Positions 7,162-54,735 of a stretch of 64,000 nucleotides of DNA are shown one piece after another. Where the stretch lies: contig JANXEA010000010.1 of NCBI GenBank assembly GCA_025059045.1, positions 53,324 to 117,323 on the forward strand, written 5' to 3'. The DNA is from Candidatus Bathyarchaeota archaeon. GTDB lineage: Archaea > Thermoproteota > Bathyarchaeia > Bathyarchaeales > DTEX01. Made by a program: the position numbers and the translations under genes. How positions within the stretch are numbered: the stretch's first letter is position 1; each line of letters opens with the position of its first letter. A model generated the notes under the pieces. It had not been told where the DNA came from. It did no database searches and saw only the letters and a program-made list of their open reading frames with translations.

Positions 7162-7255
7162 GCATAAGCCTCCGCCTCAGAGCCTCCTTAGTATTTCCTA
7201 GGCAGATTTAAAATCTATTTTTTATGCGAGTCCCTTTGGAATCGTCACCAGCGTG

Positions 7256-10903: not shown

Positions 10904-11710
10904 TTGTCGTGCATGGTTAAGGTTAGAAGGGGAATCGCTTTAGCAGTGTTGATAGTGTCGGTTCTCCCATTAGCTCTTATATATGGAATGCTCGCGTTCC
11001 AGGCTGAGCCTCCATTTGTCTGGAAGAATCTCACCATCGTCGAGAAGAATATGTTTATGATTACGCTTGACTCAAGCCCGGGCATCTTCATACCGCAAAG
11101 AATATTGTCGTCATCTGCTGGTGTCGAAAGGAGCCTATACTTATACGTTGGTCTCGGATGCATAACTTTTGAGGATCAGACGGAAAACTACGTCTTCCTA
11201 TACTTAACTGCAACATTAAGAGATTTCCGAATTGGATTGAAATCCTTGGTGAACAGGTATCTTCTCGCCTATATTAGCAATAGTAGTTTAATTGACGGTG
11301 TGATGGGAAGATATGGTTTACCGCACACCTATGCTAGAGCCTACTTTTTTCAGACAGTTCAAGGGTCCGCAAATAAAACTTATCTGCGGTTTGAGTTGCC
11401 TAACGGAGACTCGCTGGCCGAGTTTTCAGCTATTATAACTGGAAGCATAGAATTTCGGAGCGGCACATTAGACGAATGCTTCTATCATCTGAACGGAAAC
11501 AATTTGACCGCGATAAGGTTAACGGGCAACTATACGGACATTAGGCTCCAGGCTTTTAATGTGAGCTCCGCACACGCAAATGTGACCTTCTCTGAAAAGA
11601 CCCTGATGTGGAATTACATTGGAACCTCTCTAGCTATTAGAAGGTCGCTCTCGGCAATTTATGCTGAAAGGAGATTTGAGGGAAAGATTGGTTGGATGGA
11701 CTGGAGGTAG
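10904..11710 (+). CDS. membrane-anchored extracytoplasmic protein, unknown function
   Basis: N-terminal hydrophobic anchor GIALAVLIVSVLPLALIYGMLAF. The remainder is beta-rich with several N-x-S/T sequons. Alternative ATG start at 10913. Confidence 0.6.
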   Translation: MSCMVKVRRGIALAVLIVSVLPLALIYGMLAFQAEPPFVWKNLTIVEKNMFMITLDSSPGIFIPQRILSSSAGVERSLYLYVGLGCITFEDQTENYVFLYLTATLRDFRIGLKSLVNRYLLAYISNSSLIDGVMGRYGLPHTYARAYFFQTVQGSANKTYLRFELPNGDSLAEFSAIITGSIEFRSGTLDECFYHLNGNNLTAIRLTGNYTDIRLQAFNVSSAHANVTFSEKTLMWNYIGTSLAIRRSLSAIYAERRFEGKIGWMDWR

Positions 11711-11724
11711 GGGGATGTACTATA

Positions 11725-14703
11725 ATGCTGGGCTTAAGATTCTTGGCTAAGACTGTCCTCGTATTGTTATCTCTCCTAATCTGCCTTAATTTCATACCAC
11801 TGTCCACGCAAGCTGATGGGTCAGACATGGTAAATGTTCGAGGAGTAGTTTTAGATGATGAGACGGGTTGTCCTCTGCCTGGGGCTCAGGTAATATTTTG
11901 GAGTATAGATAAAGGCGCATTAACGGTAACAACCGATCTGAATGGTTATTTTTTCCTTCAGGCAATGCCCAAGGGCTTTTACACAATCTATTGCTACTGT
12001 GACCGCAAGGACACGCCTGGAATAGATTATGTCCCTTTCCGGCAACATGTTCATCTCACAGAGGATATGGAATTATCATTTAATCTTCTACCAGGAGCCT
12101 CAGTGAGGGTAGAAGGCGAGTTCAGGCCATTTGAGTCGATGCAGATCATTAGGACGATCGTCTTTCATGTCGACGGCATCCCTGAAGATAAGCGTGCACT
12201 ATCAAGTTATGGGTCGGCTTATGCCGCAAATCAGATACTTAGGTTAGACGGCAGATCAGTCATAGTTCCCTCCAACATGCCAGTAAAGGTTAATGTCGAG
12301 ATATATCTTGTAGACGGGTCTGTGAGGAGGGTACTCATAGACTCCTCAGCGGAGAATATCTCGGTGTCTCAGGGCGGGCTCCTAAGGCTCGACCTCAGAA
12401 ACCTATATTTGAAGTCGGAAGTGCAGTCAGGCTCCCTCTATCGCTATTTGGAAATGGTGAGAGAGTACCTAGAAGAGAACAAGAAACTTGGGTTCTTTGT
12501 TTTTTATGAGGAGACACGGTTGACGCACGGGGAGAAACTTATTGAGGCGGCAACGGCCCATCTTGCCGAAGGCGATTATGATGCAGTCTACGCAGACCTA
12601 AGGGAATCTTACCTCATAATAATGGATGTAGCGAATTCTCTGTTGAGTATGCGATCTAACGCTTCAGCCACTGTATACTTCATCACGCCATTCCTAGCTT
12701 CAACAGCCCTTGCGTTTTCATTCGTCATCTTCGACGAGAGACACCGCCAACTGCTGGTTAGCATCTCCTTATACATCCTACTTCTCATCCTATTATACCA
12801 TTTGTATCCCGGCTACAGCATATTCCAAAGTAGCACAATAATGCCTTGGTATGGCGCTCATTCGGGAAGCGGATCCATCGTCATATTGACCGTTTCGTCT
12901 TTCCTCGCATCATACCTCATTATATTTATTCTACCAAGATTCTTCAGCAAAGCGAAATCGGACTGGGGGATCTCTATCATAGGAGCATTATCCGCAGCGT
13001 TCTCGATATCTGCCCGCAACCTGAGACGAAGAAAGCTAAGGGCGGCTCTAACATCCATCTTCCTGTTCACAGCAGTCTTCGCATTTGTTACACTCACATC
13101 CTTCTCATATGAGAGTGGCCTAGCGTCGATCTATATGTTCGGAAGGATTGCCCCGCCATATGACGGTGTCATTGTGCGGAAGCCGACTGAGGATGAACTA
13201 AGACCCTACGATTCAATCGAAACCGCTGTCACACTGTGGCTTAAAGGGCGGAGAGGAGTGACAGTTGTGGCCCCGAAAGTTGAGAGTGTGCCCCAAATGT
13301 ACAGGATCGGCTACCTAGAGAATGAAGAGTTAGGTTTGACATTTGAGGTCCAAGGGCTGGTGGGGATATTCCCGAGGTTAGAGGAAAATGTAAGCGAGGT
13401 TAAGAGTTGCCTTCTAAATGGCAGATTTCTTGGAGACGACGACTTAACTGGCATTCTGATAAGTGCTGAAGCATCAAAGGCGCTTAAGGTTGGGGTGAAT
13501 GAAACTGTGAAGGCGCTGGGCCAAAGATTCATCGTCGTCGGAGTCTTTGATGGAAGAGCTCTAGAAGGCGTCCGAGAGATGGATGGAACAAGCTTCGTCC
13601 CAATCTATCTTGTCAGCGCAGGAATGGATATCGTTCCAGCTGAATGCTCAGGCGGGAAGGTAATAATAGTACATGCAAACGCGGCATCGAAACTGACTCA
13701 GACAGTGACCTCGAGAGTCGCGGTTAGGTCGACACAGAGCCTTGAAGAACTGGCAAGGCTGACAGTGTTAAACTGGCCTAACATCGAATGTTTCATCTGC
13801 ATCGGCGGTAAAATAACCCGCATGTATATAGGCTCATACTATAAAACTAGCGGCTTCGCTCCCTTAGCCGTGCCGCTCATCATGGTCGTCTTAAACGTCG
13901 GATTAGTTGTGCTTGCTTCAGTATATGAACGAAGAAGAGAGGTTTCAATACTTTCGACGGTAGGATTAAACCCATTCCAGATAACCGCTGTCTTCCTAGC
14001 CGAAGCAGTCGTCATCGGCATAATAGCGGGGAGCATAGGATATATTCTAGGAGTTTCGAGCTACCGCTTCCTCGCCCTCTTGGGTTTCCCCCTAGACGTC
14101 AAGATAAAAACAGAGGCCATATGGTGCATACTGGCCTTCTGCTTCTCGATAGGCGCAGCTGTTCTCGGGGCAGCTGTACCGGCTAACAGGGCCTCAACAG
14201 TTGTTACACCCTCAACGCTGAAGAAGTGGCGAATAGAGAGGGAGCCTAAAAACCCGGATGATCCCTGGATTCTCAACATCCCCCTCCGCGTCCCGCCGAA
14301 AAGCATGAATGACCTCTTCGAATTCATCCAGGAGAGGCTTCGAAGATATGCTGACGGGCAGATAGACCGCATAGATGTTAGGGATGCCTTGTGGCGAGGG
14401 GTCAAAAAAGCTGACCCTAAAACCGCTGAAGAAAATACTAGCTATATAAAGTTTATGCACATTCAGAAAGAAAAGAACATGGTCACAACCAATACATTAC
14501 TATTCACGGAAACAGGTGAGCAGGGCTCTTATGGGCTACTCTTAATATCTAAAACACGGGAGGGAACAAGCAGACAGAAGGGAAGATACTTCGTTCATCA
14601 GACAGCCTCATTAATCCGCCGCTTAATACTAGAATACACGGCGGAGAGAGCACATTCGGAAAATCTTCAAAAGAAAGCACGCAAAGATATGCATAGCCAA
14701 TAA
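11725..14703 (+). CDS. giant FtsX/MacB-type ABC permease-like protein with N-terminal CarboxypepD_reg-like domain and C-terminal cytoplasmic extension
   Basis: Signal/anchor MLGLRFLAKTVLVLLSLL, then a VRGVVLDDETGCPLPGAQV...TDLNGYFFL...GFYTI beta-sandwich. MacB-type TM1 ARNLRRRKLRAALTSIFLF is followed by a large loop and an FtsX core ERRREVSILSTVGLNPFQITAVFLAEAVVIGIIAGSIGYILG. The ORF opens at 11692, but the ATG at 11725 follows a GGAGG-like site. Confidence 0.8.
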   Translation: MLGLRFLAKTVLVLLSLLICLNFIPLSTQADGSDMVNVRGVVLDDETGCPLPGAQVIFWSIDKGALTVTTDLNGYFFLQAMPKGFYTIYCYCDRKDTPGIDYVPFRQHVHLTEDMELSFNLLPGASVRVEGEFRPFESMQIIRTIVFHVDGIPEDKRALSSYGSAYAANQILRLDGRSVIVPSNMPVKVNVEIYLVDGSVRRVLIDSSAENISVSQGGLLRLDLRNLYLKSEVQSGSLYRYLEMVREYLEENKKLGFFVFYEETRLTHGEKLIEAATAHLAEGDYDAVYADLRESYLIIMDVANSLLSMRSNASATVYFITPFLASTALAFSFVIFDERHRQLLVSISLYILLLILLYHLYPGYSIFQSSTIMPWYGAHSGSGSIVILTVSSFLASYLIIFILPRFFSKAKSDWGISIIGALSAAFSISARNLRRRKLRAALTSIFLFTAVFAFVTLTSFSYESGLASIYMFGRIAPPYDGVIVRKPTEDELRPYDSIETAVTLWLKGRRGVTVVAPKVESVPQMYRIGYLENEELGLTFEVQGLVGIFPRLEENVSEVKSCLLNGRFLGDDDLTGILISAEASKALKVGVNETVKALGQRFIVVGVFDGRALEGVREMDGTSFVPIYLVSAGMDIVPAECSGGKVIIVHANAASKLTQTVTSRVAVRSTQSLEELARLTVLNWPNIECFICIGGKITRMYIGSYYKTSGFAPLAVPLIMVVLNVGLVVLASVYERRREVSILSTVGLNPFQITAVFLAEAVVIGIIAGSIGYILGVSSYRFLALLGFPLDVKIKTEAIWCILAFCFSIGAAVLGAAVPANRASTVVTPSTLKKWRIEREPKNPDDPWILNIPLRVPPKSMNDLFEFIQERLRRYADGQIDRIDVRDALWRGVKKADPKTAEENTSYIKFMHIQKEKNMVTTNTLLFTETGEQGSYGLLLISKTREGTSRQKGRYFVHQTASLIRRLILEYTAERAHSENLQKKARKDMHSQ

Positions 14704-14779: not shown

Positions 14780-14965
14780 ATGAGTAGCATGAAAAAATCC
14801 ACAATGCCCATTTGTACCTCATGCAATAGAGTTATAGGCCCAGGCGTCGGAGCAAATAAGTTTCTATGCCCCAACTGTGGAGAGATAACGATATGGCGAT
14901 GCACAAAATGTCGAAGCTTCAGACGCACCTACAGATGCCCTGGCTGCGGTTTCCAGGGACCGTGA
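14780..14965 (+). CDS. small double zinc-ribbon protein (COG2888-like, archaeal Zn-ribbon RNA-binding protein)
   Basis: 61 aa with four CxxC pairs: CTSC...CPNC...CTKC...CPGC. Confidence 0.7.
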   Translation: MSSMKKSTMPICTSCNRVIGPGVGANKFLCPNCGEITIWRCTKCRSFRRTYRCPGCGFQGP

Positions 14966-15666: not shown

Positions 15667-18600
15667 TTGAATATGGGTGCATTAAGCCGTAGAAGAAGGG
15701 GTACTGAGGTTGAGGCAGGCTTATCTCGCGTCCTATACTCCATTTTCAACAGCGTTCCTGATATTATTTACATCAAAAATGCGAAGAGAAGATATGTGAA
15801 ATGTAATGAATCGTTTAAGAAGCTTGTAGGTTTAAATGAGGAGGATATTATAGGTAAGACCGATGAGGAACTTTTGCCTCCAGAGCTGGCAGAGCAATGC
15901 CGCAGGAGCGATATAGAGACCCTGAAGACCGGGAAGACCGTTAAGGCGATTGAAAAGTTATCTGGACCGGACGGAGAAATCATCTTTGAGACAATAAAAG
16001 TTCCTTTCTACGGTCGAGACGGTAGAGTCTTAGGGTTGGTAGGGATAAGCCGAGACATAACGGAGAAGGAAGTTTTTAAAGAGAGGCTTGAATATACAAA
16101 TAGAATTCTCCGCGGCCTATATGAATGCGCTTCAAATTTGATCATGGTTGAAAGTCCCGAGGATATTGGAAAGTGTATATTTGATGCCGTTGGATCCTGC
16201 CTAGAATTCAACCTAGGATGCTTCGGAGTAGTCGACAGAGATCAACTCCAATTCGTATACGTTGTCGGGGCGCCAATAGAAGATGTTAGATCACGGTATG
16301 CCAGCGCGGATAATATTGCTGCGAGGGCTGTTAAGACAGGCCAGACTCAATATATATCATGCGTGAATGAGGCTTCCATACTTCCATTCCTGCCTTCCTC
16401 CCTATCTGCGGTCGCTGTTCCTGTTAAGCTTGAAGAGAAAGTAGTCGCTGTCATATACCTTGAAAGCAAGAGGGCAAATGGTTTCAAGCCATCCAGCATC
16501 CAGTTTCTAGAGGTTATAGCAAGAAACCTTAGCTACCGCATTGGGGATCTCGAAAGATTAGAGAGGGAGAGGCGTCTTCAAAGCATTTTGGAAAACGCGT
16601 CCGAAGTAATATACACCCTTTCCAATGAGGGGATAGTAACATCGCTTAACCCCTCCTTTGAGAAGATAACCGGCTGGTCCAGAGAGGAGTGGATCGGAAG
16701 ACCATTCTCCGAGATTATTCATCCTGAAGATCTGCCGCTTGCAATCGAGACTTTTGAACGAACTATCCGAGGAGAAGCCCTGTCTCCTTACTGTCTGAGA
16801 ATCCTGCTAAAATCAGGCGACTTTGCAGTCGGCGAGTTCACAAGCATGCCGCTGATAGATAAGGGGAAGATCGTCGGCGAGTTTGGCATCGTCAGAGACG
16901 TGACTGAAAGAAAAAGGTTGGAGGAAAGAATTGCTTATGAGAAGAGCCTTTTAGACGCCCTTATGGAGACCGGTCCAGACGCGATATATTTCAAGGACAG
17001 GAATTCACGTTTCATCATGATAAACAAGGCTGAAGCTGAACTTTTAGGGCTGAAGGACCCAAGTGAAGCCGTGGGAAAAACGGACTTTGACTACTTCTCG
17101 CATGAGCATGCGGCCATATCATTAAAAGATGAGCAAGAGATAATTAATGGGGTTAAGCCATATATCACTAGACTTGAGCGGGTCAAGAGGTCTGACGGGC
17201 AAATACGCTGGCTATTGTCCACTAAGGTTCCGCTTAGAGACAAGAATAATGAGATAATCGGCGTTATGGGGATAGCAAGGGATGTAACTGAACTGAAATT
17301 CTTGGAGGAGCAGCTCTCGCATGAGAGAAAGCTGATGCAAGCTCTGATGGACAACATGCCTGATTCAATATACTTCAAAGATGCAAATTCACGTTTCATT
17401 AAAGTGAACAAAGCCTTCGCGGCGAGGAGAGGCCTGCGTCCAGAAGATCTGATTGGAAAGACGGACTTCGACGTTCACAGCCCAGAATTCGCTAAGGAAG
17501 CCTATGAGGATGAGCAGAGGATCATAAAAACAGGTCAGCCCGTAATATCGAAGCTCGAGAAGATTGTTGACCGCAGTGGCACTATACGATGGGTTTCAGC
17601 GACCAAGGTGCCTTTGAAAGATGAAGCCGGCAGGATTGTTGGGGTTCTCGGCATATCAAGAGATGTGACAAGCCTCAAACATGCCGAAGAAATCCTAGCA
17701 TCGCTTCACAACTACGCTTACAGGTTAAGCACCGCCAATGAAATTGAGGAGGTTGCGAGAATTACACTGGAGGCCGTAGAGAAATTGCTTGGATGCAAGA
17801 TAGCTGGCTTCGCCTTGGTAGAGAATAACTGTGTGCGCTTCACCCATATGATAGGAGTAGATGCTCCTGAACCTGTCATGCTTCCACTTAATGGGGCTGG
17901 GATAACCGTGCGTGCAGTGCGTACGGGAGAAACACAGATAGTCCCCGACACATCTCTGGACAAAGATTTCGTAAAATCGGAGAAGTCTCAATTATCGCTC
18001 TCAGAGCTCGCGGTTCCGGTTAAGGTTGGAGACAAAGTTGAGGCTGTCATCAACTTAGAGAGCGTAGGAAAGAATGCCTTCAGTGAAAGAGATGTGAGGA
18101 TAGTTGAGATACTCGCTCTTCACGTCGGAGCAGCCATTGATAGGCTCAGATACTTGAAGAGGCTGGAGGAGGCTGTTCAGGAGAGGACAAAGGAGCTCCA
18201 AAAATATTTGGAGAGGCTCAAAAGCCTAGACAAGATCAAGGACCAGTTTATATCCACAGCAACCCATGAAATAAGAACACCTTTGGTCTCTATCAAGGGT
18301 TATACCGACCTACTCTTATCGGGAAAATTAGGCGAGATCCCTGAGAAGATTCGCTCGTTACTAACCATAGTTGCCAAGAATACGGATAGGCTTCTAGAAT
18401 TGACTAACGAGTTACTGGAGGCGCAAAGGATTCAGAGGGGACGGCTCCAGATAAACAAGAGGCTGATCGACTTTAGAGAAGTCATAGAGAGCAGCGTTGA
18501 AGAGTTTAAGCCATTGATGGAGAAAAAGGGTTTAACGCTAGAAGTGGCTAAACCAGATAAACCTATGCTTGTCCATGGTGACCCATTAAGATTGACGCAG

Positions 18601-18939
18601 GTTATTACTAACCTTTTAAGTAACGCCTACAAATTCACGTCTGAAGGTGGCAGAGTAGCGCTGCGATGCATAGACGAGGGCTCATTATTGAAGGTTCAGG
18701 TTTCAGATACTGGCATCGGAATTGCTCAAGAAGACTTGAATAAGCTCTTCCAACCTTTCCCGAACATTCAGAGACCAAACGTTACGGAACCGTCTATAGG
18801 GCTAGGTCTATCCATATGTAAGGGGATCGTCAGCCTACACGACGGCCAGATATGGGCTGAGTCTCCTGGTATAGGTAAGGGTGCGACATTCACTTTCACA
18901 TTGCCAAAGGCGTCGAAGGGTGAGGCAGACCATGGCTGA
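15667..18939 (+). CDS. multi-domain sensor histidine kinase (PAS-GAF-PAS-PAS-PAS-GAF-HisKA-HATPase)
   Basis: Repeated PAS cores (GISRDITE, GIVRDVTERK, GIARDVTELK, GISRDVTSLK). H-box STATHEIRTPL, N-box LLSNAYKFT, G1 DTGIGI, G2 GLGLSI. TTG at 15667 or ATG at 15673. Confidence 0.9.
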   Translation: MNMGALSRRRRGTEVEAGLSRVLYSIFNSVPDIIYIKNAKRRYVKCNESFKKLVGLNEEDIIGKTDEELLPPELAEQCRRSDIETLKTGKTVKAIEKLSGPDGEIIFETIKVPFYGRDGRVLGLVGISRDITEKEVFKERLEYTNRILRGLYECASNLIMVESPEDIGKCIFDAVGSCLEFNLGCFGVVDRDQLQFVYVVGAPIEDVRSRYASADNIAARAVKTGQTQYISCVNEASILPFLPSSLSAVAVPVKLEEKVVAVIYLESKRANGFKPSSIQFLEVIARNLSYRIGDLERLERERRLQSILENASEVIYTLSNEGIVTSLNPSFEKITGWSREEWIGRPFSEIIHPEDLPLAIETFERTIRGEALSPYCLRILLKSGDFAVGEFTSMPLIDKGKIVGEFGIVRDVTERKRLEERIAYEKSLLDALMETGPDAIYFKDRNSRFIMINKAEAELLGLKDPSEAVGKTDFDYFSHEHAAISLKDEQEIINGVKPYITRLERVKRSDGQIRWLLSTKVPLRDKNNEIIGVMGIARDVTELKFLEEQLSHERKLMQALMDNMPDSIYFKDANSRFIKVNKAFAARRGLRPEDLIGKTDFDVHSPEFAKEAYEDEQRIIKTGQPVISKLEKIVDRSGTIRWVSATKVPLKDEAGRIVGVLGISRDVTSLKHAEEILASLHNYAYRLSTANEIEEVARITLEAVEKLLGCKIAGFALVENNCVRFTHMIGVDAPEPVMLPLNGAGITVRAVRTGETQIVPDTSLDKDFVKSEKSQLSLSELAVPVKVGDKVEAVINLESVGKNAFSERDVRIVEILALHVGAAIDRLRYLKRLEEAVQERTKELQKYLERLKSLDKIKDQFISTATHEIRTPLVSIKGYTDLLLSGKLGEIPEKIRSLLTIVAKNTDRLLELTNELLEAQRIQRGRLQINKRLIDFREVIESSVEEFKPLMEKKGLTLEVAKPDKPMLVHGDPLRLTQVITNLLSNAYKFTSEGGRVALRCIDEGSLLKVQVSDTGIGIAQEDLNKLFQPFPNIQRPNVTEPSIGLGLSICKGIVSLHDGQIWAESPGIGKGATFTFTLPKASKGEADHG

Positions 18940-19828
18940 CAAGATTCTAGTCGTAGATGATGAGGCTGACATAGCAAACCTTGCAAAGATTATCCTAGAA
19001 TCTGAGGGATATAGTGTTGTAACAGCCTCTAATGGGGAGGAGGCACTAGCGAAAGTTTACCAAGAATCTCCTGATCTTGTGCTGCTAGACATAGTCATGC
19101 CTAAAAAGACGGGTCTAGAGGTCTGTAGAATATTGAAGGAGCAGAAGAGGACTAGGCAGATCCCGGTCATTGTGTTCTCGGTTTTGGGAAGAGAGGTTGA
19201 TAGGAGGATGAGCGCCGAGGTCGGCGCTGACGCACACTTCGTCAAGCCATTCACTCCGGAAAGCCTAGTTGAAATCGTCAGAACCCATCTCTTAAAGGCG
19301 AAAATGAATAAGTTTTCTTCTCATCTGGGCTTTAATCACAGCTACCTTTCAGGCAGGAAGATGCTGTTAGAATTCAGTCCGGACGCCTCCTATGAGCGTT
19401 GTGTCCGGGACTTCATCCTAGAGGCTAAAGCTAACGGCGAGGCGATCGTTGTTCTAACAGCTAAGGGAAGCGCGGTTTATCAGGTTGCCTTGGACGAGGG
19501 AAACGTGGACATAAAGAATATCACAGCGAAACCAATAATATCGCCAATACTCGATTCCTATAGAGATGTAAGTCTCAGCATCGTATTCGACAACCTTTCA
19601 GACATGATGCTTTCCCTTGGATTGGTCCAGACCTACAATTTTGTTAGGAACGCCTTAGAAAATATGGCTGATCAGAGGATAACGGCGCTCTTCCTCCTCA
19701 ATCCGGATGCGCATCAGCCAAGTGAAGCGTACAGTATAAGAGGGCTTTTTAGAGATCAACTGGCGTATAGAAACGAAGGGCTGACCATAATTAAGATTAG
19801 CCCGCCCTTGGCAGCCGCCAAAGAGTAA
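18932..19828 (+). CDS. response regulator: CheY-like receiver fused to a P-loop-less KaiC/RecA-like domain
   Basis: MADKILVVDDE ... LLDIVMP ... FVKPF receiver. The C-terminal 170 aa (LLEFSPDASYERCVRDFILEAKANGEAIVVLT...) resembles the KaiC-like core but lacks GxxxxGK[ST]. The ATG overlaps the kinase stop (ATGGCTGA). Confidence 0.8.
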   Translation: MADKILVVDDEADIANLAKIILESEGYSVVTASNGEEALAKVYQESPDLVLLDIVMPKKTGLEVCRILKEQKRTRQIPVIVFSVLGREVDRRMSAEVGADAHFVKPFTPESLVEIVRTHLLKAKMNKFSSHLGFNHSYLSGRKMLLEFSPDASYERCVRDFILEAKANGEAIVVLTAKGSAVYQVALDEGNVDIKNITAKPIISPILDSYRDVSLSIVFDNLSDMMLSLGLVQTYNFVRNALENMADQRITALFLLNPDAHQPSEAYSIRGLFRDQLAYRNEGLTIIKISPPLAAAKE

Positions 19829-19866
19829 GCCAGCATATCAGTTTGAGCTCTAATTTTTTAGGATGT

Positions 19867-20634
19867 CTATTCCGCGAAGACGGACTCTCCCGGATAAACG
19901 ATTATCCCGTTCGATGTAAAATCGTATGGGCATATTCTATCCGTAATCTTGACGCCGCGCATCTTTCTAACCTCAACCGCCCTAACTATTGAGTCCCTTA
20001 TCCTGTAGGAGTGAAGGTGTATCACCCCATGGGCTAGAAACTCCTCGGTTCCATACCTCTGCATGTTGGGATTCTCCTCCCTGCTCTCGACAAGCAACAA
20101 TGTTGTCAACCTCATCTCTGTAAGCGCCTTGACAAGCCTAAGCAAACCCTGCCTAGACTCAAATTCGTCGCGATACTGTATTTGGAGGGCTGAGACGCTG
20201 TCGACGACACATCTCTTAGCTTCAATCTTTCTCCTAGCATCGTTGATAGCGCCGATTAAGCCGTCAACACTGAACTCCTCGGTTCCAATACCCGCCTTGA
20301 TCACGTACCTTCCCTGCTGCCCCTCAGCTCTAATCGGGGAAGCGTCAACGATGGCCAACCGCCTCTTCTCCTCAAGATCATACATGTTCCAACCATAGCG
20401 TAGAGCAGAATTAGCAATCGAGTATGGCGGTTCCTCCAGAGTCACGTAGATTCCATTCTCACCAAACCTCAATATGCCAGTGCATATAAATTGGACTGCA
20501 AAGGTCGTCTTACCAGTGCCAGGTCCGCCTACAATAGCGTAGCAATATCCTCTTGGCAGTCCACCCTCAATCAATCCGTCGAAGCCATCGATGCCTGTTT
20601 GAACCCTCTCCTGAGGCAAGATTGTGGCCCCCAT
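19867..20634 (-). CDS. KaiC-like / RecA-superfamily ATPase (COG0467 type)
   Basis: VQTGIDGFDGLIEGGLP followed by Walker A GGPGTGKTT. Single-domain size (255 aa). Confidence 0.85.
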   Translation of the reverse strand: MGATILPQERVQTGIDGFDGLIEGGLPRGYCYAIVGGPGTGKTTFAVQFICTGILRFGENGIYVTLEEPPYSIANSALRYGWNMYDLEEKRRLAIVDASPIRAEGQQGRYVIKAGIGTEEFSVDGLIGAINDARRKIEAKRCVVDSVSALQIQYRDEFESRQGLLRLVKALTEMRLTTLLLVESREENPNMQRYGTEEFLAHGVIHLHSYRIRDSIVRAVEVRKMRGVKITDRICPYDFTSNGIIVYPGESVFAE

Positions 20635-20660: not shown

Positions 20661-20669
20661 AAATATAAA
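20661..20669 (-). promoter_or_regulatory. TATA-like box for the KaiC-like gene
   Basis: The minus strand reads TTTATATTT about 27-35 nt upstream of the ATG at 20634, consistent with a leaderless or short-leader transcript. Confidence 0.3.
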
Positions 20670-20792
20670 CATGGACGGATCAAAAATACTTAAATCTCCC
20701 ATGGAACACCGTTCCAATCGGTTGCATTAGTTTTAGCCAAGTTATCGGTTGGTAGCTACGTTTTCCCATAAGATGAGTAGAAGGTTGATTCC

Positions 20793-23639
20793 TCAATCCA
20801 AAACGGCATAGGCTATGCTACCTCTCCGCGTAACAACCTTGACCTCACGCCTTGAAGATTCGGACGTAATATTAAGATTTTTCTCGACTCTGCTTCCAGG
20901 GGAGAGGATAATCGGGGGGTCAATGGTTATCCTGTCATGAGAGGTGGAGTTTATAACCCATATGCTTACAAGTTCAACTGTTAAAGGACCGATGTTCATG
21001 ATCTCAAGGATCATGCTCCCCCTGTCGAGGCGATATTCATTCACCACGAGAAGATTTGCGTAGCAGGCGACTGGGTATTCAGATTCTCCATATAACCGGA
21101 CTCTTACGTCTCCTTCGGGTCCAATATGTCTCTTTATGGTTTCGGCTTCAAGATATAATTCTTGGGTTACGTCACTACCACCTATGGTGACCGTCGAAAG
21201 TTCTATCCAATTTTTCTCTGTATGATCCCAGATGAAAATTCTCTGGGTGACAGAGACGGGCTCATGGCTTGTAACATAAGCAATTATGCCAAGATAATCC
21301 GCGTAGCAGTAGAAGGCTGAACTGCCCGCACACTGGCCTAAAAGCCTTATCTCGATAACCCCTTCCTCATTTATGAAATCTGCTAGCTCAGCGGATATCG
21401 TCCTATTCTGGAAACACCCAACTCCGGAACTCTCATATATGTCTGCTTCGCCTAGCTGGATCCACTGGAGTGAGCTATGATTAAGTGCATACATCCTCTG
21501 GGTGACGCAATCCTCTGTATATGAGCCATAGTAGGATATGGAAACTTGTGTAATGGAGTCTGACGACGGCAAAATAAACTTTGCATACCAGTCGGAGATA
21601 TATATTGTGTAATGTTTTGCACTTAGCACTATATAATCTACCTTCAGGTAAAATCTTGTGGCGGTATATTTGACACCGCGGATCTTGATCCTCCAGTTTC
21701 CTGCGGCGTCTCTGAAGTTTGTCGCATCAACGGTTATTGTCTGATTTTTTGTCTCATCAATAGCTGGTGTGGAAGAAGATATGTATGATATATAACCGTC
21801 CCCGCTTACTGGGTAAACGCTTCTCGAATAGTCATAAAGCTGGGCCGTCACGTTTACTAATCCTTCAGTCCATGCACAATCTATGCCCCATGTGAGTTCA
21901 AGCCATTCTTCTGTATCACTTGATCCTAAAAACTCAACCTCTGCAACATATCTATCCTGATAGCTGAAGCCTTCGATACGGCTGTTATAGTTTAGGTCAC
22001 CGAATCTGAAATAGGCATATGTTGAACCTCCCTGAAAAGAACGTTGAGTCCAGTAATATACAGTCCATGTTGCAGATCCAATTTGGGATGTGTTGAGCTG
22101 TCCAGTAACAAATTCCGCAAGAAGATTGTCCGGGCCTCCTAGACTGGCATAAACCCGAATTACGATGGCGTCAGTAGGTGATGTTACCGTTAAGGGGCAA
22201 TTCCATGATGAGCTTTGAATTCCAGACCCGCTGGTGCTTCTAGTCACCGTGGCCACCATTGTTCCATTCGTTATTTCGGTTTCAATACCGCTTGCGCTTC
22301 GCTTCCATACGCGGATTCCCCATGTGCATGTTCGCTGACCTGTACGGCTTGCGCTTCTCTGCACATATGAAGACGTTTGATTTACGCCTAGAGCAAAAGC
22401 CTGCAGGCCATTTATTGTCTGATTGTTACTTGTGAAATAACGTGTCTCATTCCTAAATAATGGATAGCTTCTGAAAATCATATATAGTCCCTCATCGGCT
22501 GCTAGATTAGCTAATGAGCCATTCACATATTCTGTACTTTCCACCAAGATGTAGCCTGAGGGGATGTATGAATTTATCAATTCATTTATTCCATAGGATC
22601 TCAAGGTCCAGCAGACATCATCTTTGCCTGAAAGATTCCGATAGCTTCCTGATACGTTTAATGTATCGCCCAGCATGCCACCTAATGATATGTTTCCATT
22701 TTCTAGGAAAAGTCTGGAGTAATGACCGACATACTTCAGCCTAAACTTTTCAACATCGATCGGGTTTACGCCCATTCTGAATAAGGCGGTCCAATCAACG
22801 ATGCTTGCAGGTCTAACCTCTAGGAGAACGCCTACGTCGTCGAAGAGTATACGGATCCCCCCCTGAAGGGCGCCTGTTTTTGCAGAGAGGCAGATGTGCA
22901 GCCTGTATAAACCCGTCGCATTGAAGATTTCTGGTGGTAAGGAATTTTGCGTGTAATGCCACACTCCATACTGAGACGCATCCACATTAACTGAGCATAA
23001 AATATGTTGGAATGGAACGCTAGGTCTTTCCAAAATAACATAGATGATCAACTCAGCTGATGGGTTGGCCCATGCGTTCATCCATGCCCAGCTTAGACTG
23101 GCTGAAACTGGCTTCCCAGTCTCGTGGACGAAGCTGCAGGTCCAATTCAGCCAGTATGGACCTACATTAGTCCCAGTTAAACCTGAATATATGCAGCCTG
23201 GTCCTGATCCGGGATCTGACTGCCCCTCCCCCGAGAGGTATCCGCCAACTGTACCCTTGGCCCCTTCAGTCTTGCAAAGTATCCAACCATCAACACCACT
23301 TGTGAAGTTCATGTTGCCAATCAAATACTTTCTCACATAATCGTTCTTGCTATTGAAGACCACATACCTCTTGTCTACAGAACGCAGATCAGCGATTGAA
23401 CCAATACTGCCTGAGCTGACCATTTCAGGGTAAATCTCTCGACTGGCAACGCTTGGGTAGAGGGCTGAAATGACGATCCTCTCTCTACTCCTCTCATCGT
23501 CTAGCAGGGCTAGCTCGTACTGTGCTTGGTAAACTTCGTACATAAAGTTGAGCATGAGAAGCATGACCATGAGTAGGAAGACCATGCCTATCGCCGCGGT
23601 CTGTCCCCGACATTCTTTATGGAGTCGCCTCGGTAACAA
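20793..23639 (-). CDS. 948-aa extracellular protein with class III (type IV pilin-like) N-terminus, CBM-like jelly-roll and pilin-like C-terminal domain
   Basis: N-terminus KECRGQTAAIGMVFLLMVMLLML. NMNFTSGVDGW ... IRILFDDVGVLL resembles a CBM4/9-type jelly-roll. I count 18 N-x-S/T sequons by eye. The C-terminal MILEIMNIGPLTVELVSIWV motif is shared with the upstream pilin-like gene, whose 3' end it overlaps by 23 nt. Confidence 0.75.
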   Translation of the reverse strand: MLPRRLHKECRGQTAAIGMVFLLMVMLLMLNFMYEVYQAQYELALLDDERSRERIVISALYPSVASREIYPEMVSSGSIGSIADLRSVDKRYVVFNSKNDYVRKYLIGNMNFTSGVDGWILCKTEGAKGTVGGYLSGEGQSDPGSGPGCIYSGLTGTNVGPYWLNWTCSFVHETGKPVSASLSWAWMNAWANPSAELIIYVILERPSVPFQHILCSVNVDASQYGVWHYTQNSLPPEIFNATGLYRLHICLSAKTGALQGGIRILFDDVGVLLEVRPASIVDWTALFRMGVNPIDVEKFRLKYVGHYSRLFLENGNISLGGMLGDTLNVSGSYRNLSGKDDVCWTLRSYGINELINSYIPSGYILVESTEYVNGSLANLAADEGLYMIFRSYPLFRNETRYFTSNNQTINGLQAFALGVNQTSSYVQRSASRTGQRTCTWGIRVWKRSASGIETEITNGTMVATVTRSTSGSGIQSSSWNCPLTVTSPTDAIVIRVYASLGGPDNLLAEFVTGQLNTSQIGSATWTVYYWTQRSFQGGSTYAYFRFGDLNYNSRIEGFSYQDRYVAEVEFLGSSDTEEWLELTWGIDCAWTEGLVNVTAQLYDYSRSVYPVSGDGYISYISSSTPAIDETKNQTITVDATNFRDAAGNWRIKIRGVKYTATRFYLKVDYIVLSAKHYTIYISDWYAKFILPSSDSITQVSISYYGSYTEDCVTQRMYALNHSSLQWIQLGEADIYESSGVGCFQNRTISAELADFINEEGVIEIRLLGQCAGSSAFYCYADYLGIIAYVTSHEPVSVTQRIFIWDHTEKNWIELSTVTIGGSDVTQELYLEAETIKRHIGPEGDVRVRLYGESEYPVACYANLLVVNEYRLDRGSMILEIMNIGPLTVELVSIWVINSTSHDRITIDPPIILSPGSRVEKNLNITSESSRREVKVVTRRGSIAYAVLD

Positions 23640-24039
23640 ATCTGCTTCCCCTCTCCGATACGATAATTATCCTTTGAGGTACACCAGCCGACCAAGCTTG
23701 AGAAAAACTGCAGTTCAGCCACCCTCCTTGATTAGGCGGCAGCTTAAGTTTAGACGGCGACATTGATGAGGCGACCGTACCGCCTACCGATACTGATACA
23801 ATGTTTATGTCTACGGAGCCGATGTTCCGGACATAGATTCTTAACGTATTGGAGCCGGTGAACCACACATCCTCAATTACGAGGCGTTCCCTCATCTGGA
23901 TAAGGGTTCCTTGCCTTTGAAAGCTTATAGCCGTAGAAGCCGCCGCGTATGCTATGGCGCAGGCCGTGAAGGTTATAACTAGCATTAGAAGAGACTCGAC
24001 GATTTGGCTTTGTCCTCTTCGGCGCATAGGTCCTCCCAT
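23617..24039 (-). CDS. archaeal type IV pilin-like protein (class III signal peptide)
   Basis: MGGPMRRRGQSQIVESLLMLVITFTACAIAYAAAS fits the [KR]G-Q-x-S-x-x-E-x-L-L prepilin pattern. Beta-sandwich motif LRIYVRNIGSVDINIVSVSV. Alternative ATG at 24027; the ORF opens at 24072. Confidence 0.65.
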   Translation of the reverse strand: MGGPMRRRGQSQIVESLLMLVITFTACAIAYAAASTAISFQRQGTLIQMRERLVIEDVWFTGSNTLRIYVRNIGSVDINIVSVSVGGTVASSMSPSKLKLPPNQGGWLNCSFSQAWSAGVPQRIIIVSERGSRFVTEATP

Positions 24040-24053
24040 GCAGATTTCACCAG

Positions 24054-24443
24054 TCAGAGGGTGGATCCGCATATTAGGCCGAGTAGTAAATACCAGAAAA
24101 CCCTGTAGACTGATACAGCCATCAGCACTGATAATTTTGCTATGGGAAGGATCTTTAGTTCTCTAGGGAAGAAAAATCCGATTTTAGCTAAGAAGACGCT
24201 GATAAGAAAGGCTGCAAATAGAAGTGGGGGCAAAAGCAAAAACACATAAGCATCCATAAGCCTGAAGATGAGTCCAGATGTGAATCCTAATGCTATATTG
24301 TCAAAGTGAACACTTAACCTCTGCTTCATCGTCTCATGTTGAAGTTCAGGAAAATATTTGTCCCTGACATGATTCGATATCCCAATTAAGGTTCCAACTA
24401 AATCTAAGGGAGGAGTATTCCAGAGTAGCAGCTGAGCCAGCAT
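24054..24443 (-). CDS. small integral membrane protein (129 aa), first gene of the pilin-like operon
   Basis: Three to four hydrophobic segments and no recognised motif. The stop lies 14 nt upstream of the next gene start. Confidence 0.5.
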   Translation of the reverse strand: MLAQLLLWNTPPLDLVGTLIGISNHVRDKYFPELQHETMKQRLSVHFDNIALGFTSGLIFRLMDAYVFLLLPPLLFAAFLISVFLAKIGFFFPRELKILPIAKLSVLMAVSVYRVFWYLLLGLICGSTL

Positions 24444-24655: not shown

Positions 24656-25018
24656 TCATGCCTGTACACATTTCTCTATGAATTCCATTACCGATAGGGT
24701 TCCATGTTTGAATATGCCATTTTCGAAGACGCAATCAGGCCAGACTAGTATCGAGACTCTTCCCCCATCCTTTCTAATGAGTTCCATCTCGAAGCTTTTA
24801 ACATCCTCGGCCAAAAGATCAGCGAATACCTTTCTCAGCTCTTTCGGTACCAACGAAAAAATGTTGACGCCAACTAGTTCCTTTTGAGAGTACCTCAGCA
24901 TCCTAGCGACGTATGCATCGGCCTTCTTGATGTTATAGCCTGCGTCCAGCTCAAGCATGCCTGTCTCGATTTTACTAATAGCTTTCACCCATAATCCAAG
25001 ACCCAAATAGATCACCAT
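24656..25018 (-). CDS. small membrane-anchored PAS-domain protein
   Basis: N-terminal hydrophobic segment, then a PAS-like core (YSQKELVGVNIFSLVP ... ELIRKDGGRVSILV). Confidence 0.55.
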   Translation of the reverse strand: MVIYLGLGLWVKAISKIETGMLELDAGYNIKKADAYVARMLRYSQKELVGVNIFSLVPKELRKVFADLLAEDVKSFEMELIRKDGGRVSILVWPDCVFENGIFKHGTLSVMEFIEKCVQA

Positions 25019-51681: not shown

Positions 51682-52155
51682 ATGAAGAGCAGACCGAGAA
51701 TATTGATAATCGATGATGACGAAAACATAAGAAAGGTCCTATCTATGATCCTAGAAGACAAAGGGTACATAGTGGACGTCGCAGAGGATGGGGAAGAGGC
51801 GATAAAAAAATCTCAAAAGAACTTCTATAACCTGGCATTAATAGACATAAAGCTGCCGGACATGGAAGGAACCGATCTTCTGACAAGAATGAAGGAGACG
51901 ACGCCGAAGATGATAAAAATCATACTGACCGGCTACCCTACATTGAAGAATGCAATAGACGCTGTGAACAAGGGTGCTGACGGCTATTTAGTAAAGCCTA
52001 TCGATGTAGACGCCTTATGTCACGTGATTGCGGAGCATCTGAAGAGGCAGGAGGAGGAAAACAGGTTCAGCGAGGAGAAGGTTGCGGAATTTATAGAGAC
52101 GAGGGCCAGAGAGATGAAGAGTAAATCCAAGCCTAGGAAGAAGCCGGAGAAATGA
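51682..52155 (+). CDS. stand-alone CheY-like response regulator
   Basis: ILIIDDDE ... LALIDIKLPDMEG ... YLVKP receiver motifs and a Lys-rich tail. Confidence 0.9.
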   Translation: MKSRPRILIIDDDENIRKVLSMILEDKGYIVDVAEDGEEAIKKSQKNFYNLALIDIKLPDMEGTDLLTRMKETTPKMIKIILTGYPTLKNAIDAVNKGADGYLVKPIDVDALCHVIAEHLKRQEEENRFSEEKVAEFIETRAREMKSKSKPRKKPEK

Positions 52156-52161
52156 GGCCCC

Positions 52162-52506
52162 ATGAAAACTATCGCCAGTAGCAGAATTCAAGCTGGGGAA
52201 GAGCTGGTGCTGAAAGTAGTGGAAGAGGTTTTGATTAATGTTCTTGGGGAGAAGGCGTTTACGCGGCTTGTAAAAGCGTTGAGAAGGAACTTCTCACTTG
52301 AGTGGCATGAAATTCCAAGTAAGAGCGACTTGTTCTCCTTTGCACTTAAGGAGATGCTGGGCATAGGCTCAACAATTATTGAGGATCTGATAATAGAGAA
52401 TTTGTATCTCAAGCTGGGACAAGAGATAAGGTGGAGAAAAGACTACAAATTCTCAGACTATATAAAAGAGATTCTATCGGCCGCAGACGGGGATAAACGT
52501 GCATGA
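52162..52506 (+). CDS. small helical protein between receiver and kinase (114 aa), unknown function
   Basis: ATG 7 nt after the receiver stop. No motif recognised. Confidence 0.5.
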   Translation: MKTIASSRIQAGEELVLKVVEEVLINVLGEKAFTRLVKALRRNFSLEWHEIPSKSDLFSFALKEMLGIGSTIIEDLIIENLYLKLGQEIRWRKDYKFSDYIKEILSAADGDKRA

Positions 52507-52514
52507 CTTATGGT

Positions 52515-52536
52515 CATAGGCTACGAGTAGCCTATG
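52515..52536. repeat. near-perfect 22-bp palindrome
   Basis: CATAGGCTAC-GA-GTAGCCTATG, 9 nt after the stop of the small gene and 60 nt before the kinase start. Confidence 0.7.
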
Positions 52537-52596
52537 GGGGACGCTTGGAGCCCACATGCAAAACAGAAGGCCTATTGATTAAATGGGGGACCTGTA

Positions 52597-54735
52597 ATGC
52601 TACTTTACGCAGCCATGTTACTCACGCTCAGCATTATCGCAATAATGTTTGTGATCCGTAATCTAATATCAAAAAATACGAGCAGTATTATCGGTTCTAT
52701 AGTCATCTCAGCAATTCTAATATGGTCGCTTGGACTGACCCTTGAGATAAGTAGCTCCGACTTCTCCACTAAACTGTTATGGAATAAGATTCAATTTATC
52801 GGGATTGACCTCCTTCCATCAACATGGCTCATTTATGTTCTTTATCTTCTAGGATATGGGAGGTGGTTAACCAGAAGATTGGTTTGCCTTCTAAGCATCG
52901 CTCCAGCTGTGAAACTGCTGCTTGTTTTCACTAATGAGATGCATGGCCTAATTTATGAACAGGTAAGCCTAAACCCTTATGACCCGAGACTACCGTTAAC
53001 CGTCCATTATGGTCTTGGTTTTTGGGTCTTCTTCATTTACATTTACGCTCTTCTTTTGTATTCATCGGTTTTCTCTCTAGCCACCTTATTTCGCGCATAT
53101 ACTCTATATAAATCTCAAGCGGCGGCTCTTTTACTAATCACGGTTGTCCCATGGGTTAGCAGCGCGTTCGTCTACCTGAGACTTCGCGTCTTTCCAATGG
53201 ATTTTACACCGGCCATATGTCTTGTTGCTTCGATACTACTATCCTTAGTTAATCCATCCCGGCTGCGTCTCAAGGATGTTATCCCAGTCGCCCATAAAGT
53301 CGTTCTGAACAGCATAAGTGATGGAATAATCGTGATGGACGAGCATAACAATATTCTTGAGCTTAATAAGGCCGCGGAGGCGATGACTGGTTTATCGAAT
53401 AAGGATGCGCGGGGAAGAGCTGCCTCTGAGATTCTGAGTTTTATCCCGAACCCTTCATCAAGTGAGTTGTGCAATGATAGCGGCCGGGAGGTTTCGCTGG
53501 GAGGGAAGACGTATAGCCTACACTTTTCAACTGTCTCTGACTGGTCTGGAAATCCCAGATGCAGAATCCTCGTTCTGCATGACGTGACAAGAATGAAACT
53601 CATGGAGGAAGAACTGAAGAAGTACACGGAGCATCTGGAAAGCTTAGTGAAAGAGAAGACAAAGAAACTTCAGGAGAGCCAATCCTGGCTGACGAATGTG
53701 TTCACCGCGTCTCCCGACGCGATATTAGTTGCCGACATTAAAGGAAACATTGTTGAATGTAATCATGCGACATTAACGATGTTTAAATTCCCTTCTAGAA
53801 ATGATGCGATTGGGAAGAATGGTCTTAATTTTGTTGCTAAAAAAGATCATAGGAAACTCTCGGAGATCTCAAAAGTGCTACTGAAAGAGGGTCTTGTGAG
53901 GAATATTGAGATCACCCTTCTGACCGCGGATGGCAAAGAATTTGCAGGGGAAGTTTCTCTGAGCCTAATTAGGGACTTAGAAAACAATCCAGCCTACATA
54001 ATCGCAATGGCTAGAGACATAACTGACCGCAAGGAGATGCAGAAGAAGCTACTTAGGTCGGAACGGCTTGCCGCAATAGGCGAGTTAGCTGGAATGGTGG
54101 GTCATGATCTTAGGAACCCGTTGACCAGCATACTCGGCGCATCCTATTATTTGAAGATGAAGTATAACTCCATTCTAGACGAGAAGAGCCGCTATATGCT
54201 GAAAATAATAGAGGATGACGTTAGGTATGCGAACAAGATTGTCGATGATCTTCTCGACTACTCCAGCGAGATACGTCTAAATCTTAAAGTGGTCAATTTA
54301 GCCTCGCTTATATCCGAATCATTAAGGATTCTGGAAATACCGAATAATATTGAAGTTGTGAAGCTAGTGGATGAGGGGGTGAAGCTTGAGGTAGACATTG
54401 AAAAGATGAAGAGGGTATTCGTCAACATAATAAGGAATGCCGTTGAGGCTATGCCTGTCGGTGGGAAGCTCACCATACAAGCAGTCAAATTTGACGATAG
54501 GGTGGAAGTCACGTTTACGGACACGGGGATCGGTATACCTAAAGAGATGCTTCCAAATCTCGGGAAACCATTGTTCACGACGAAGCCAAGAGGCATGGGC
54601 TTCGGACTTGCGGTATCAAAACGTTTTGTTGAGGCGCACAATGGAACGATTAGCTGGGAAAGTACTTATGGGAAGGGAACAACAGTAAGGATAATCTTGC
54701 CATTAAGCAGACAGGAAACTGATCATAGCGGATAA
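52597..54735 (+). CDS. sensor histidine kinase with N-terminal 7TM (HisKA_7TM-like) domain, two PAS domains, HisKA and HATPase
   Basis: Seven hydrophobic segments with a TNEMHGLIY motif, and PAS cores (VLHDVTRMK, MARDITDRK). H-box GHDLRNPL, N-box IIRNAVEAM, DTGIGI, GFGLAV. Confidence 0.9.
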   Translation: MLLYAAMLLTLSIIAIMFVIRNLISKNTSSIIGSIVISAILIWSLGLTLEISSSDFSTKLLWNKIQFIGIDLLPSTWLIYVLYLLGYGRWLTRRLVCLLSIAPAVKLLLVFTNEMHGLIYEQVSLNPYDPRLPLTVHYGLGFWVFFIYIYALLLYSSVFSLATLFRAYTLYKSQAAALLLITVVPWVSSAFVYLRLRVFPMDFTPAICLVASILLSLVNPSRLRLKDVIPVAHKVVLNSISDGIIVMDEHNNILELNKAAEAMTGLSNKDARGRAASEILSFIPNPSSSELCNDSGREVSLGGKTYSLHFSTVSDWSGNPRCRILVLHDVTRMKLMEEELKKYTEHLESLVKEKTKKLQESQSWLTNVFTASPDAILVADIKGNIVECNHATLTMFKFPSRNDAIGKNGLNFVAKKDHRKLSEISKVLLKEGLVRNIEITLLTADGKEFAGEVSLSLIRDLENNPAYIIAMARDITDRKEMQKKLLRSERLAAIGELAGMVGHDLRNPLTSILGASYYLKMKYNSILDEKSRYMLKIIEDDVRYANKIVDDLLDYSSEIRLNLKVVNLASLISESLRILEIPNNIEVVKLVDEGVKLEVDIEKMKRVFVNIIRNAVEAMPVGGKLTIQAVKFDDRVEVTFTDTGIGIPKEMLPNLGKPLFTTKPRGMGFGLAVSKRFVEAHNGTISWESTYGKGTTVRIILPLSRQETDHSG

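Follow-up and report, generated by a model that had tools for sequence, protein, structure and literature searches.

What does a two-component system act upon in an archaeon when the output domain of its response regulator is an ATPase fold stripped of its ATPase motifs? The question is raised by a 64-kb stretch of a Bathyarchaeia metagenome-assembled genome (MAG), referred to here in its entirety (~60 genes) as the window, in which the gene for a sensor histidine kinase runs into the gene for a regulator composed of a receiver (REC) and a C-terminal inactivated KaiC domain (iKaiC). A gene for a KaiC-like ATPase and a group of pilin-like genes lie immediately beyond. The best overall explanation, which we hold with no more than moderate confidence, is that the kinase signals through the REC-iKaiC regulator to a KaiC-family ATPase and, by this route, to a pilus-like surface structure. 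The kinase and regulator are laid out as follows, in window coordinates.

15667..18939, + strand: sensor histidine kinase, 1090 amino acids (aa) (open reading frame [ORF] and Pfam)
18932..18939, + strand: overlap of the kinase stop and regulator start, ATGGCTGA (sequence reading)
18932..19828, + strand: response regulator, 298 aa (ORF)
18932..19291, + strand: REC domain (PF00072 and residue check)
19292..19801, + strand: iKaiC output domain, aa 121-290 of the regulator (hhalign, AlphaFold2, and Foldseek)

The kinase contains four PAS and two GAF domains, a HisKA domain (aa 858-925; PF00512, E 9.7e-14), and a HATPase_c domain (aa 971-1082; PF02518, E 7.9e-26) by Pfam, and its phospho-accepting histidine, His867, lies in the H-box HEIRTP. 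A search for transmembrane (TM) or other hydrophobic segments found none in the kinase, which is thus predicted to be soluble. The REC domain (aa 5-117; PF00072, E 1.3e-27), the sole Pfam match of the regulator, retains D9/D10 as its acidic pair and D53 as its phospho-acceptor, together with S83 and K105. The ATG of the regulator begins at 18932 and the TGA of the kinase occupies 18937-18939. An earlier interpretation of this DNA (the sequence-only reading) had proposed translational coupling at this junction, and both the 8-nt overlap and all of the ORFs that it had described, for the kinase, the receiver protein, and the KaiC-like gene, are borne out here. For comparison, we used the loci of relatives, numbered with an L prefix: L001, reached via a 43%-identical homolog, 42 from species genomes, and 80 from metagenomes (queried with a 4-sequence alignment). 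The fetched loci were annotated with custom HMMs and derive mostly from Bathyarchaeia, as well as from Thermoplasmata, Asgard (Borrarchaeum and Promethearchaeota), and Thaumarchaeota/Nitrosopumilales MAGs. Similarly tight kinase/regulator junctions are present in L001, L009, and L013, a kinase gene lies directly upstream, often overlapping, in essentially every REC-iKaiC locus for which upstream sequence is available, and in an unbiased clustering of neighbors the only cluster common to all 67 loci holds the kinase and regulator ORFs. It is clear from these results that the kinase is the cognate partner of the regulator, the two genes being translationally coupled and the phosphorelay residues of both proteins intact, and that a kinase is the universal partner of REC-iKaiC regulators.

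The identity of the output domain emerged only at the level of the family. The domain from the window gave no match by phmmer against PDB sequences and nothing meaningful in Pfam and NCBIfam scans, a profile built from four sequences reached an hhalign probability of 0.2% against KaiC and no significant match against the PDB, and single-sequence AlphaFold2 prediction of the whole regulator left the domain at a pLDDT of <50. A word-indexed homolog search yielded 4 proteins, and an exhaustive profile search covering 1.84 billion representative proteins recovered relatives in 460 clusters at E≤1e-3 and 114 at E≤1e-30; the 460 homologous clusters rule out a chance extension of the ORF. Alignment by hhalign of 145 of these domain sequences to 25 KaiC sequences, taken from the KaiC genes of the fetched loci, produced a collinear match (probability 91.2%, E 9.8e-7) of domain residues 20-156 to residues 28-204 of the window KaiC, with the following correspondences.

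P-loop: EFSPDASYE in iKaiC, GGPGTGKTT in the window KaiC
Catalytic Glu pair: VLTAKGS in iKaiC, VTLEEPP in the window KaiC
Walker B: IVFDNLSD in iKaiC, CVVDSVSA in the window KaiC
Next strand: ITALFLLN in iKaiC, LTTLLLVE in the window KaiC

AlphaFold2 modeling of the domain with a 65-sequence alignment gave a pLDDT of 95.3 and a pTM of 0.91, and the best 50 Foldseek matches of this model in the PDB were all FlaH, KaiC, or PH0250 (E 1e-7 to 3e-6), led by FlaH 4yds (E 1.1e-7, TMq 0.64), with KaiC structures at a TMq of 0.62-0.74. FlaH 4yds was also the best sequence match of the 65-sequence profile in the PDB (E 0.035). Because the family-profile match and the Foldseek matches of the AlphaFold2 model agree, the KaiC/RecA fold of the domain is confirmed, and the profile and structure comparisons have thereby found the RecA/KaiC similarity that the sequence-only reading had proposed for a receiver-fused domain lacking a P-loop. 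The P-loop is replaced by SPDASYE and the catalytic EE by TAK, with the Walker-B Asp (D100 in domain numbering) retained, and the motif GxxxxGK[ST] is absent from the entire 298-aa regulator. As both the P-loop and the catalytic glutamates are lost, the domain is an inactivated KaiC and not a canonical ATPase.

Among the 65 relatives, matches at E<0.01 were obtained to DUF7090 (48/65), DUF7504 (42/65), DUF835 (37/65), and KaiC (2/65). The three DUF matches fall mostly below the Pfam cutoffs, and by this measure indicate kinship to DUF835, DUF7090, and DUF7504 at the superfamily level only; the window domain is itself under the gathering cutoffs, with DUF7504 as its best match (E 0.098, 13.6 bits against a cutoff of 27). 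The domain found in the window regulator is therefore a member of a subfamily that lies below the Pfam models and belongs mainly to Bathyarchaeia.

What remains of the former active site bears on what the domain does. The most conserved polar residues of the 145 sequences occupy former active-site positions (E27, 96%; D29, 88%; Y34, 90%; T56, 92%; D100, 97%; N137, 81%; H141, 92%), a pattern that hints at some continuing use of the old ATP site. It could be that the remodeled pocket binds a ligand or metal, or has become a new catalytic site, in which case the C-terminal domain would give the regulator an additional sensor or enzyme in the manner of the MEDS-type iKaiC, for which there is precedent (PMC5847659). 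We consider this minor alternative the least probable of those weighed here, as the window protein has Ser at the D29 position, no ligand is predicted, and the domain always stands C-terminal to input modules, as is typical of an output. An iKaiC domain without canonical ATP binding or hydrolysis therefore most likely acts via protein-protein contacts; it is not a DNA-binding output.

The architectures of 154 family representatives place the iKaiC domain always at the C-terminus, behind REC, multi-TM, or ectodomain input modules, and were distributed as follows.

1-8 TM helices, then iKaiC (TM-iKaiC): 69/154
iKaiC without another detected module (stand-alone, fragments, or an unrecognized N-terminal region): 35/154
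Receiver-iKaiC: 20/154
Signal or TM, ectodomain homologous to the window 948-aa protein, TM, iKaiC: 18/154
TM, degenerate KaiC-like, iKaiC: 4/154
Walker-A KaiC domain, then iKaiC (P0019, P0049, and P0066; the KaiC part confirmed by Pfam for P0019): 3/154
DUF7743-like ectodomain, TM, iKaiC: 2/154

If the domain works by protein-protein contacts, the nearest candidate for a partner is encoded on the other side of a short intergenic spacer.

19829..19866, between genes: convergent spacer of 38 nt with a T6 run on the + strand (sequence)
19867..20634, - strand: single-domain KaiC-like ATPase, 255 aa (Pfam, NCBIfam, PDB, and motifs)
20661..20670, - strand: TATA-like box GTTTATATTT (motif only)

This protein matches PF06745 with an E of 3.5e-64 and the solved KaiC CI domains and PH0186 with an E of 1e-45 to 1e-57, and it carries Walker A GGPGTGKTT at 36-44, LEE at 66-68, VVDS at 143-146, and KMRG at 224. 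The description of an intact, single-domain, convergently oriented KaiC-like ATPase with a TATA-like box of its own has thus held up, the box being a putative element recognized by motif only, 27-36 nt upstream of the KaiC ATG; the spacer, previously given as 39 nt, is 38 nt between the two stop codons. Two more specific identities for the ATPase can be rejected. It is not ArlH, as it scores 32.5 bits against a cutoff of 215 for NF052589 and the window has no T2SSE or T2SSF homolog, and it is not a clock KaiC, as it is a single domain of 255 aa that scores 178.9 against 408 for PRK09302 and 152 against 546 for TIGR02655.

The sequence-only reading had suggested that the receiver-fused domain, controlled by phosphorylation, forms heteromers with the active KaiC-like protein or titrates it, and several lines of evidence favor KaiC proteins as the partners of iKaiC. 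The window holds exactly one KaiC gene and one iKaiC gene, and because these are the nearest neighbors of each other among ~60 genes, the layout is unlikely to be due to chance, which we estimate at roughly 3%. The KaiC subfamily of the window occurs in nine iKaiC loci from Bathyarchaeia, Asgard, and Thaumarchaeota/Nitrosopumilales MAGs, at 33-48% identity over the full length. A second KaiC subfamily of ~226-230 aa is encoded 22-70 nt upstream of, or overlapping, TM-iKaiC genes in L029, L030, L041, and L043, in each case on the same strand and with KaiC directly upstream, and has a further member next to REC-iKaiC in L001; the 226-aa KaiC genes that accompany REC-iKaiC in L011 and L012 make up a separate small cluster. 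It is because of the CI-CII tandems of KaiC, the KaiC-iKaiC tandems, and these recurring same-strand gene pairs that we regard KaiC proteins as the likeliest partners of iKaiC, and we tentatively put the chance that KaiC is the partner at a little short of even.

The same comparison also supplies the points that weigh against this reading. By BLASTP, the output domain shows no similarity to the neighboring KaiC (E 3.6). The KaiC gene is convergent with the regulator gene and has its own putative promoter, so the two are not co-transcribed. Of the 29 REC-iKaiC loci flanked by 8 kb or more, only 8 (the window, L001, L011, L012, L060, L062, L038, and L040) encode KaiC within 10 kb, six of them within 1 kb, and the eight represent about four independent lineages; the other 21 lack KaiC within 10 kb, long contigs included, and among the 80 closest metagenomic relatives Walker-A KaiC neighbors are limited to the L060/L062 type. 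A small helical protein of ~103 aa is encoded directly downstream of REC-iKaiC in at least 21 of 67 loci. Universal co-localization of KaiC with the REC-iKaiC family is therefore ruled out. The sequence-only reading had called for a survey of whether the fusion is conserved together with the neighboring ATPase and pilin-like genes, and the outcome is divided, with the kinase universal and the association partial for KaiC and for pilin or pilus-assembly genes, the latter recurring in four loci.

These observations give substance to the main rival explanation, in which the iKaiC output acts independently of the neighboring KaiC, either as a self-oligomerizing scaffold or with another partner such as the ~103-aa helical protein, and the adjacency in the window is incidental. 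Consistent with such independence are the 21 well-flanked loci that lack KaiC, the convergent arrangement of the two genes, and the distribution of the small helical ORF, which also follows the TM-iKaiC gene in L043 and has a copy in another two-component cluster of the window (52162-52506). Set against it are the existence of KaiC-iKaiC fusions and of same-strand KaiC-to-iKaiC gene pairs, the presence of one KaiC subfamily in nine iKaiC loci from three archaeal groups, and the position of the only KaiC and only iKaiC genes of 64 kb as nearest neighbors. Weighing these, we consider independent action unlikely, although it is the alternative that deserves to be taken most seriously.

Two features of these loci are worth recording in their own right. 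The small helical protein has no Pfam family; two of its members match NitrOD5 weakly (E 0.005), and its best profile match in the PDB is PH0832 (E 0.014). NitrOD5 has been classed with archaeal DEATH-like adaptor domains (PMC5847659). The window copy is 114 aa long and is encoded in a second two-component cluster, with a stand-alone receiver on one side of it and a 712-aa kinase on the other (51682-54735, + strand: REC, 51682..52155; small ORF, 52162..52506; kinase, 52597..54735). In the Asgard-type loci L011 (11057-14455), L012, L060, and L062, the kinase and REC-iKaiC genes are followed by genes for a 226-aa KaiC, a Ras-family GTPase (PF00071, E 2.8e-51), a ~401-aa protein with no Pfam match, and a 250-aa KaiC, such that a eukaryote-like GTPase is embedded within a KaiC/two-component cluster.

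The next step is what the KaiC-like ATPase might itself control, and here the genes on its far side offer a candidate.

20793..23639, - strand: 948-aa surface protein with a pilin-like (class III-type) N-terminus (ORF)
23617..24072, - strand: 151-aa pilin-like protein (weak UpsA and archaellin N-terminal matches)
24054..24443, - strand: 129-aa membrane protein heading the pilin-like cluster (ORF and hydrophobic segment)

The N-termini of the 151-aa protein (RRRGQ/SQIVESLLMLVITF) and the 948-aa protein (RGQ/TAAIGMVFLLMVML) were examined by eye and consist of [KR]GQ followed by a single hydrophobic helix, an arrangement that resembles an archaeal class III (pilin) signal. In NCBIfam, the 151-aa protein matches UpsA with an E of 4.5e-5 (23.6 bits against a cutoff of 130) and arch_flag_Nterm with 14 bits against 20. 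Its homologs are encoded beside REC-iKaiC in L001, L038, and L042 and match Pilin_N with E values of 0.002 (L001), 3e-4 (L042), and 4e-6 (L038), the last of these exceeding the cutoff (28 against 25.2 bits). Neither the 948-aa protein nor the 129-aa membrane protein matches a Pfam family. The KaiC-like gene is on the same strand as these three genes and downstream of the pilin-like ones, and since it belongs to their cluster by strand and position, a type IV pilus-like adhesive structure is a plausible target of the pathway.

The 948-aa protein is tied to the iKaiC family in another manner, as its region aa ~560-680 is the module shared with the ectodomains of the 18 receptor-like representatives (E 1e-23 to 1e-38). 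This extracellular module of ~115 aa (aa ~560-680 and ~330-410) has no Pfam family and is present in one to several copies per protein in those 18 of 154 signal-ectodomain-TM-iKaiC representatives. In L023, a 1399-aa homolog of the 948-aa protein, in which the module corresponds to eight matched segments, adjoins a TM-iKaiC gene. It is on account of the KaiC-iKaiC fusions and of the ectodomain-TM-iKaiC fusions carrying the module of the 948-aa protein that a role linked to KaiC and pili is favored.

Pilin or pilus-assembly genes recur in four of the relatives' loci. In L001, there are two KaiC genes, the kinase and REC-iKaiC genes, the pilin-like homolog of the 151-aa protein, a KaiC-like gene, DUF7743, TackOD1, two T2SSF genes, and T2SSE; L038 and L040 both contain REC-iKaiC, T2SSF, T2SSE, pilin, and KaiC; and L042 contains KaiC, TackOD1, pilin, and REC-iKaiC. 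The KaiC-like protein of L001, encoded at 7043-7915 (+) between the pilin-like and DUF7743 genes, has 290 aa, matches PF06745 (E 1.3e-18), and lacks GxxxxGK[ST]; judged by these features, it is possibly another inactivated KaiC of the same pilus locus. The link to a pilus-like structure, of which the sequence-only reading had proposed that the locus may be the regulatory arm, thus recurs in four related loci and fits the published association of KaiC with type IV pili (PMC4858521). However, there are no assembly genes in the window: no T2SSE or T2SSF homolog was found within the 64 kb, a further point against our interpretation. We accordingly regard a pilus or adhesin as a possible output, and a more doubtful element of the pathway than the KaiC partner.

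The assembly genes also bear on an alternative in which iKaiC would behave like ArlH/FlaH, docking on a hexameric pilus-assembly ATPase of the T2SSE/ArlI type to gate assembly, with the receiver controlling the docking and KaiC serving as a parallel regulator. The standing of FlaH 4yds as the best structural and profile match is in keeping with this, as is the presence of T2SSE/T2SSF near REC-iKaiC or TM-iKaiC in L001, L029, L038, L040, and L043. However, FlaH depends on a nucleotide site (4yds was solved as a complex with ATP/Mg) and the iKaiC domain has no P-loop, most REC-iKaiC loci are without T2SSE/T2SSF, and such genes are missing from the window. This second minor rival is very improbable.

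Returning to the pathway that we favor, a cytoplasmic cue would be sensed by the soluble PAS/GAF kinase, which would phosphorylate Asp53 of the regulator. Phosphorylation of the receiver would then change the oligomeric state of iKaiC or its docking onto KaiC-family ATPases, most plausibly onto the KaiC-like ATPase encoded 38 nt away, and the pathway as a whole would adjust an adhesive structure on the cell surface that resembles a type IV pilus.

Other genes around the locus include, ~700 bp upstream of the kinase, that for a 61-aa small zinc-finger protein of the HVO_2753 family (14780-14965, +; PF07754, E 1.7e-18). The Haloferax homolog of this zinc finger has been connected with swarming and biofilm phenotypes. 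The zinc-finger and kinase genes are closely preceded by a MacB/FtsX-type gene (11692-14703, +), whose 1003-aa membrane product begins with a CarboxypepD_reg-like domain and also contains a MacB-like periplasmic core and an FtsX permease domain. The pilin-like cluster is directly preceded, on its own strand, by a gene for a 120-aa PAS-only protein (24656-25018, -) with weak PAS_9 and PAS matches (E ~1e-3), and beyond the cluster is a pair encoding LemA (PF04011, E 1.3e-52) and an M48 peptidase (E 4.5e-32) at 25255-26729 (+), which is probably unrelated to the locus.

The sequence-only reading had regarded the receiver-iKaiC architecture as unusual, and in this respect it was mistaken, as such regulators have already been cataloged. 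DUF835, an iKaiC domain, is the output of 36 archaeal regulators with REC-DUF835 and REC-PAS-PAS-DUF835 architectures from Methanomicrobia and Thermoplasmata (Galperin 2018, Table 2, PMC5847659), and iKaiC-REC and REC-MEDS (iKaiC) architectures appear in the same catalog (PMC5847659). As cited there, the iKaiC concept and the "KaiC hub" hypothesis are credited to Makarova et al. 2017 mBio (via PMC5847659). The REC-DUF835 regulators are predicted to function in protein-protein signaling, and no member has been studied experimentally (PMC5847659). Like them, the window regulator has an N-terminal receiver and a C-terminal inactivated KaiC-superfamily domain, more than half of the relatives of that domain match DUF835 (the 37/65 given above), and one relative comes from a Thermoplasmata MAG (L009). 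Unlike them, the window domain is under the Pfam cutoffs for DUF835, DUF7090, and DUF7504, as are most of the relatives fused to REC, and the 2018 census does not list it for Bathyarchaeia. The REC-MEDS (iKaiC) regulators of Nitrososphaera, from the TACK group, are similar in that a receiver is fused to an inactivated domain of the KaiC superfamily (PMC5847659), but neither the window domain nor its relatives were reported to match MEDS (PF14417), and the conserved motifs differ.

Comparison with the better-known members of the superfamily is also instructive. Canonical KaiC consists of two RecA-like domains in tandem, which form stacked rings. The window domain has the fold of the CI and CII domains of cyanobacterial KaiC (at the TMq values given above), and the KaiC-iKaiC tandems mimic the CI-CII layout; however, the window domain lacks Walker A and the catalytic glutamates, no KaiA or KaiB was detected nearby, and the neighboring ATPase is a single-domain protein under the NCBIfam circ_KaiC cutoffs. 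ArlH/FlaH (4yds) resembles the window domain in being a single RecA/KaiC-like domain, and belongs to a type IV pilus-related machine, but it binds ATP and has no receiver fusion, whereas the window domain is without a P-loop.

The association of KaiC proteins with pili is likewise established, as KaiC families are strongly associated with archaeal type IV pilus loci, most of these proteins having no evident second interacting component (Makarova, Koonin, Albers 2016, PMC4858521). The KaiC-like gene of the window agrees with these in following pilin-like genes on their strand, and the homologous locus L001 holds TackOD1, T2SSE, and T2SSF; it differs in that the kinase-controlled iKaiC is a candidate for the second component and in that the window has no assembly genes. 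TackOD1, reported from thaumarchaeal pilus loci (PMC4858521), was seen in L001, L042, and L050. The KaiC-like CirA of Haloferax volcanii, which represses archaellum genes (PMC10983859), shows that a KaiC-like protein is able to regulate a pilus-type machine, and a two-component system came out of the same motility screen as CirA (PMC13464002).

Both the architecture and the pilus association are thus of known kinds, and the locus does not constitute a new kind of system. What is new is a large subfamily not captured by Pfam, the extension of REC-iKaiC regulators to Bathyarchaeia and Asgard MAGs, the trio formed with a specific KaiC subfamily, and the ectodomain-TM-iKaiC fusions that share a module with the neighboring giant surface protein. 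Archaeal response regulators are mostly without DNA-binding outputs and how they relay signals is poorly understood, and the role of KaiC-like ATPases as archaeal signaling hubs, proposed in 2017, has barely been tested. A compact trio of kinase, receiver-iKaiC, and KaiC-like ATPase beside its candidate output, the pilin-like genes, provides an experimental entry point to both problems, as the KaiC-iKaiC fusions suggest that the two domains interact and the ectodomain-TM-iKaiC receptors suggest that iKaiC relays cell-surface signals. The family takes its inputs from receivers, from bundles of 5-7 TM helices, and from receptor-like ectodomains that have counterparts in giant pilin-like surface proteins. 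A more far-reaching possibility, rather improbable in its full form, is that iKaiC, far from being a dead scaffold, is a large modular class of cytoplasmic signaling outputs in Bathyarchaeia and neighboring archaea (at least 460 clusters at 50% identity) whose pocket reads the phosphorylation or nucleotide state of KaiC hexamers or binds a ligand, with the phosphorylated receiver gating a mixed KaiC:iKaiC assembly that switches a pilus-like adhesin. If this were true, the locus would be the first tractable example in which a two-component system of bacterial type feeds directly into the archaeal KaiC network.

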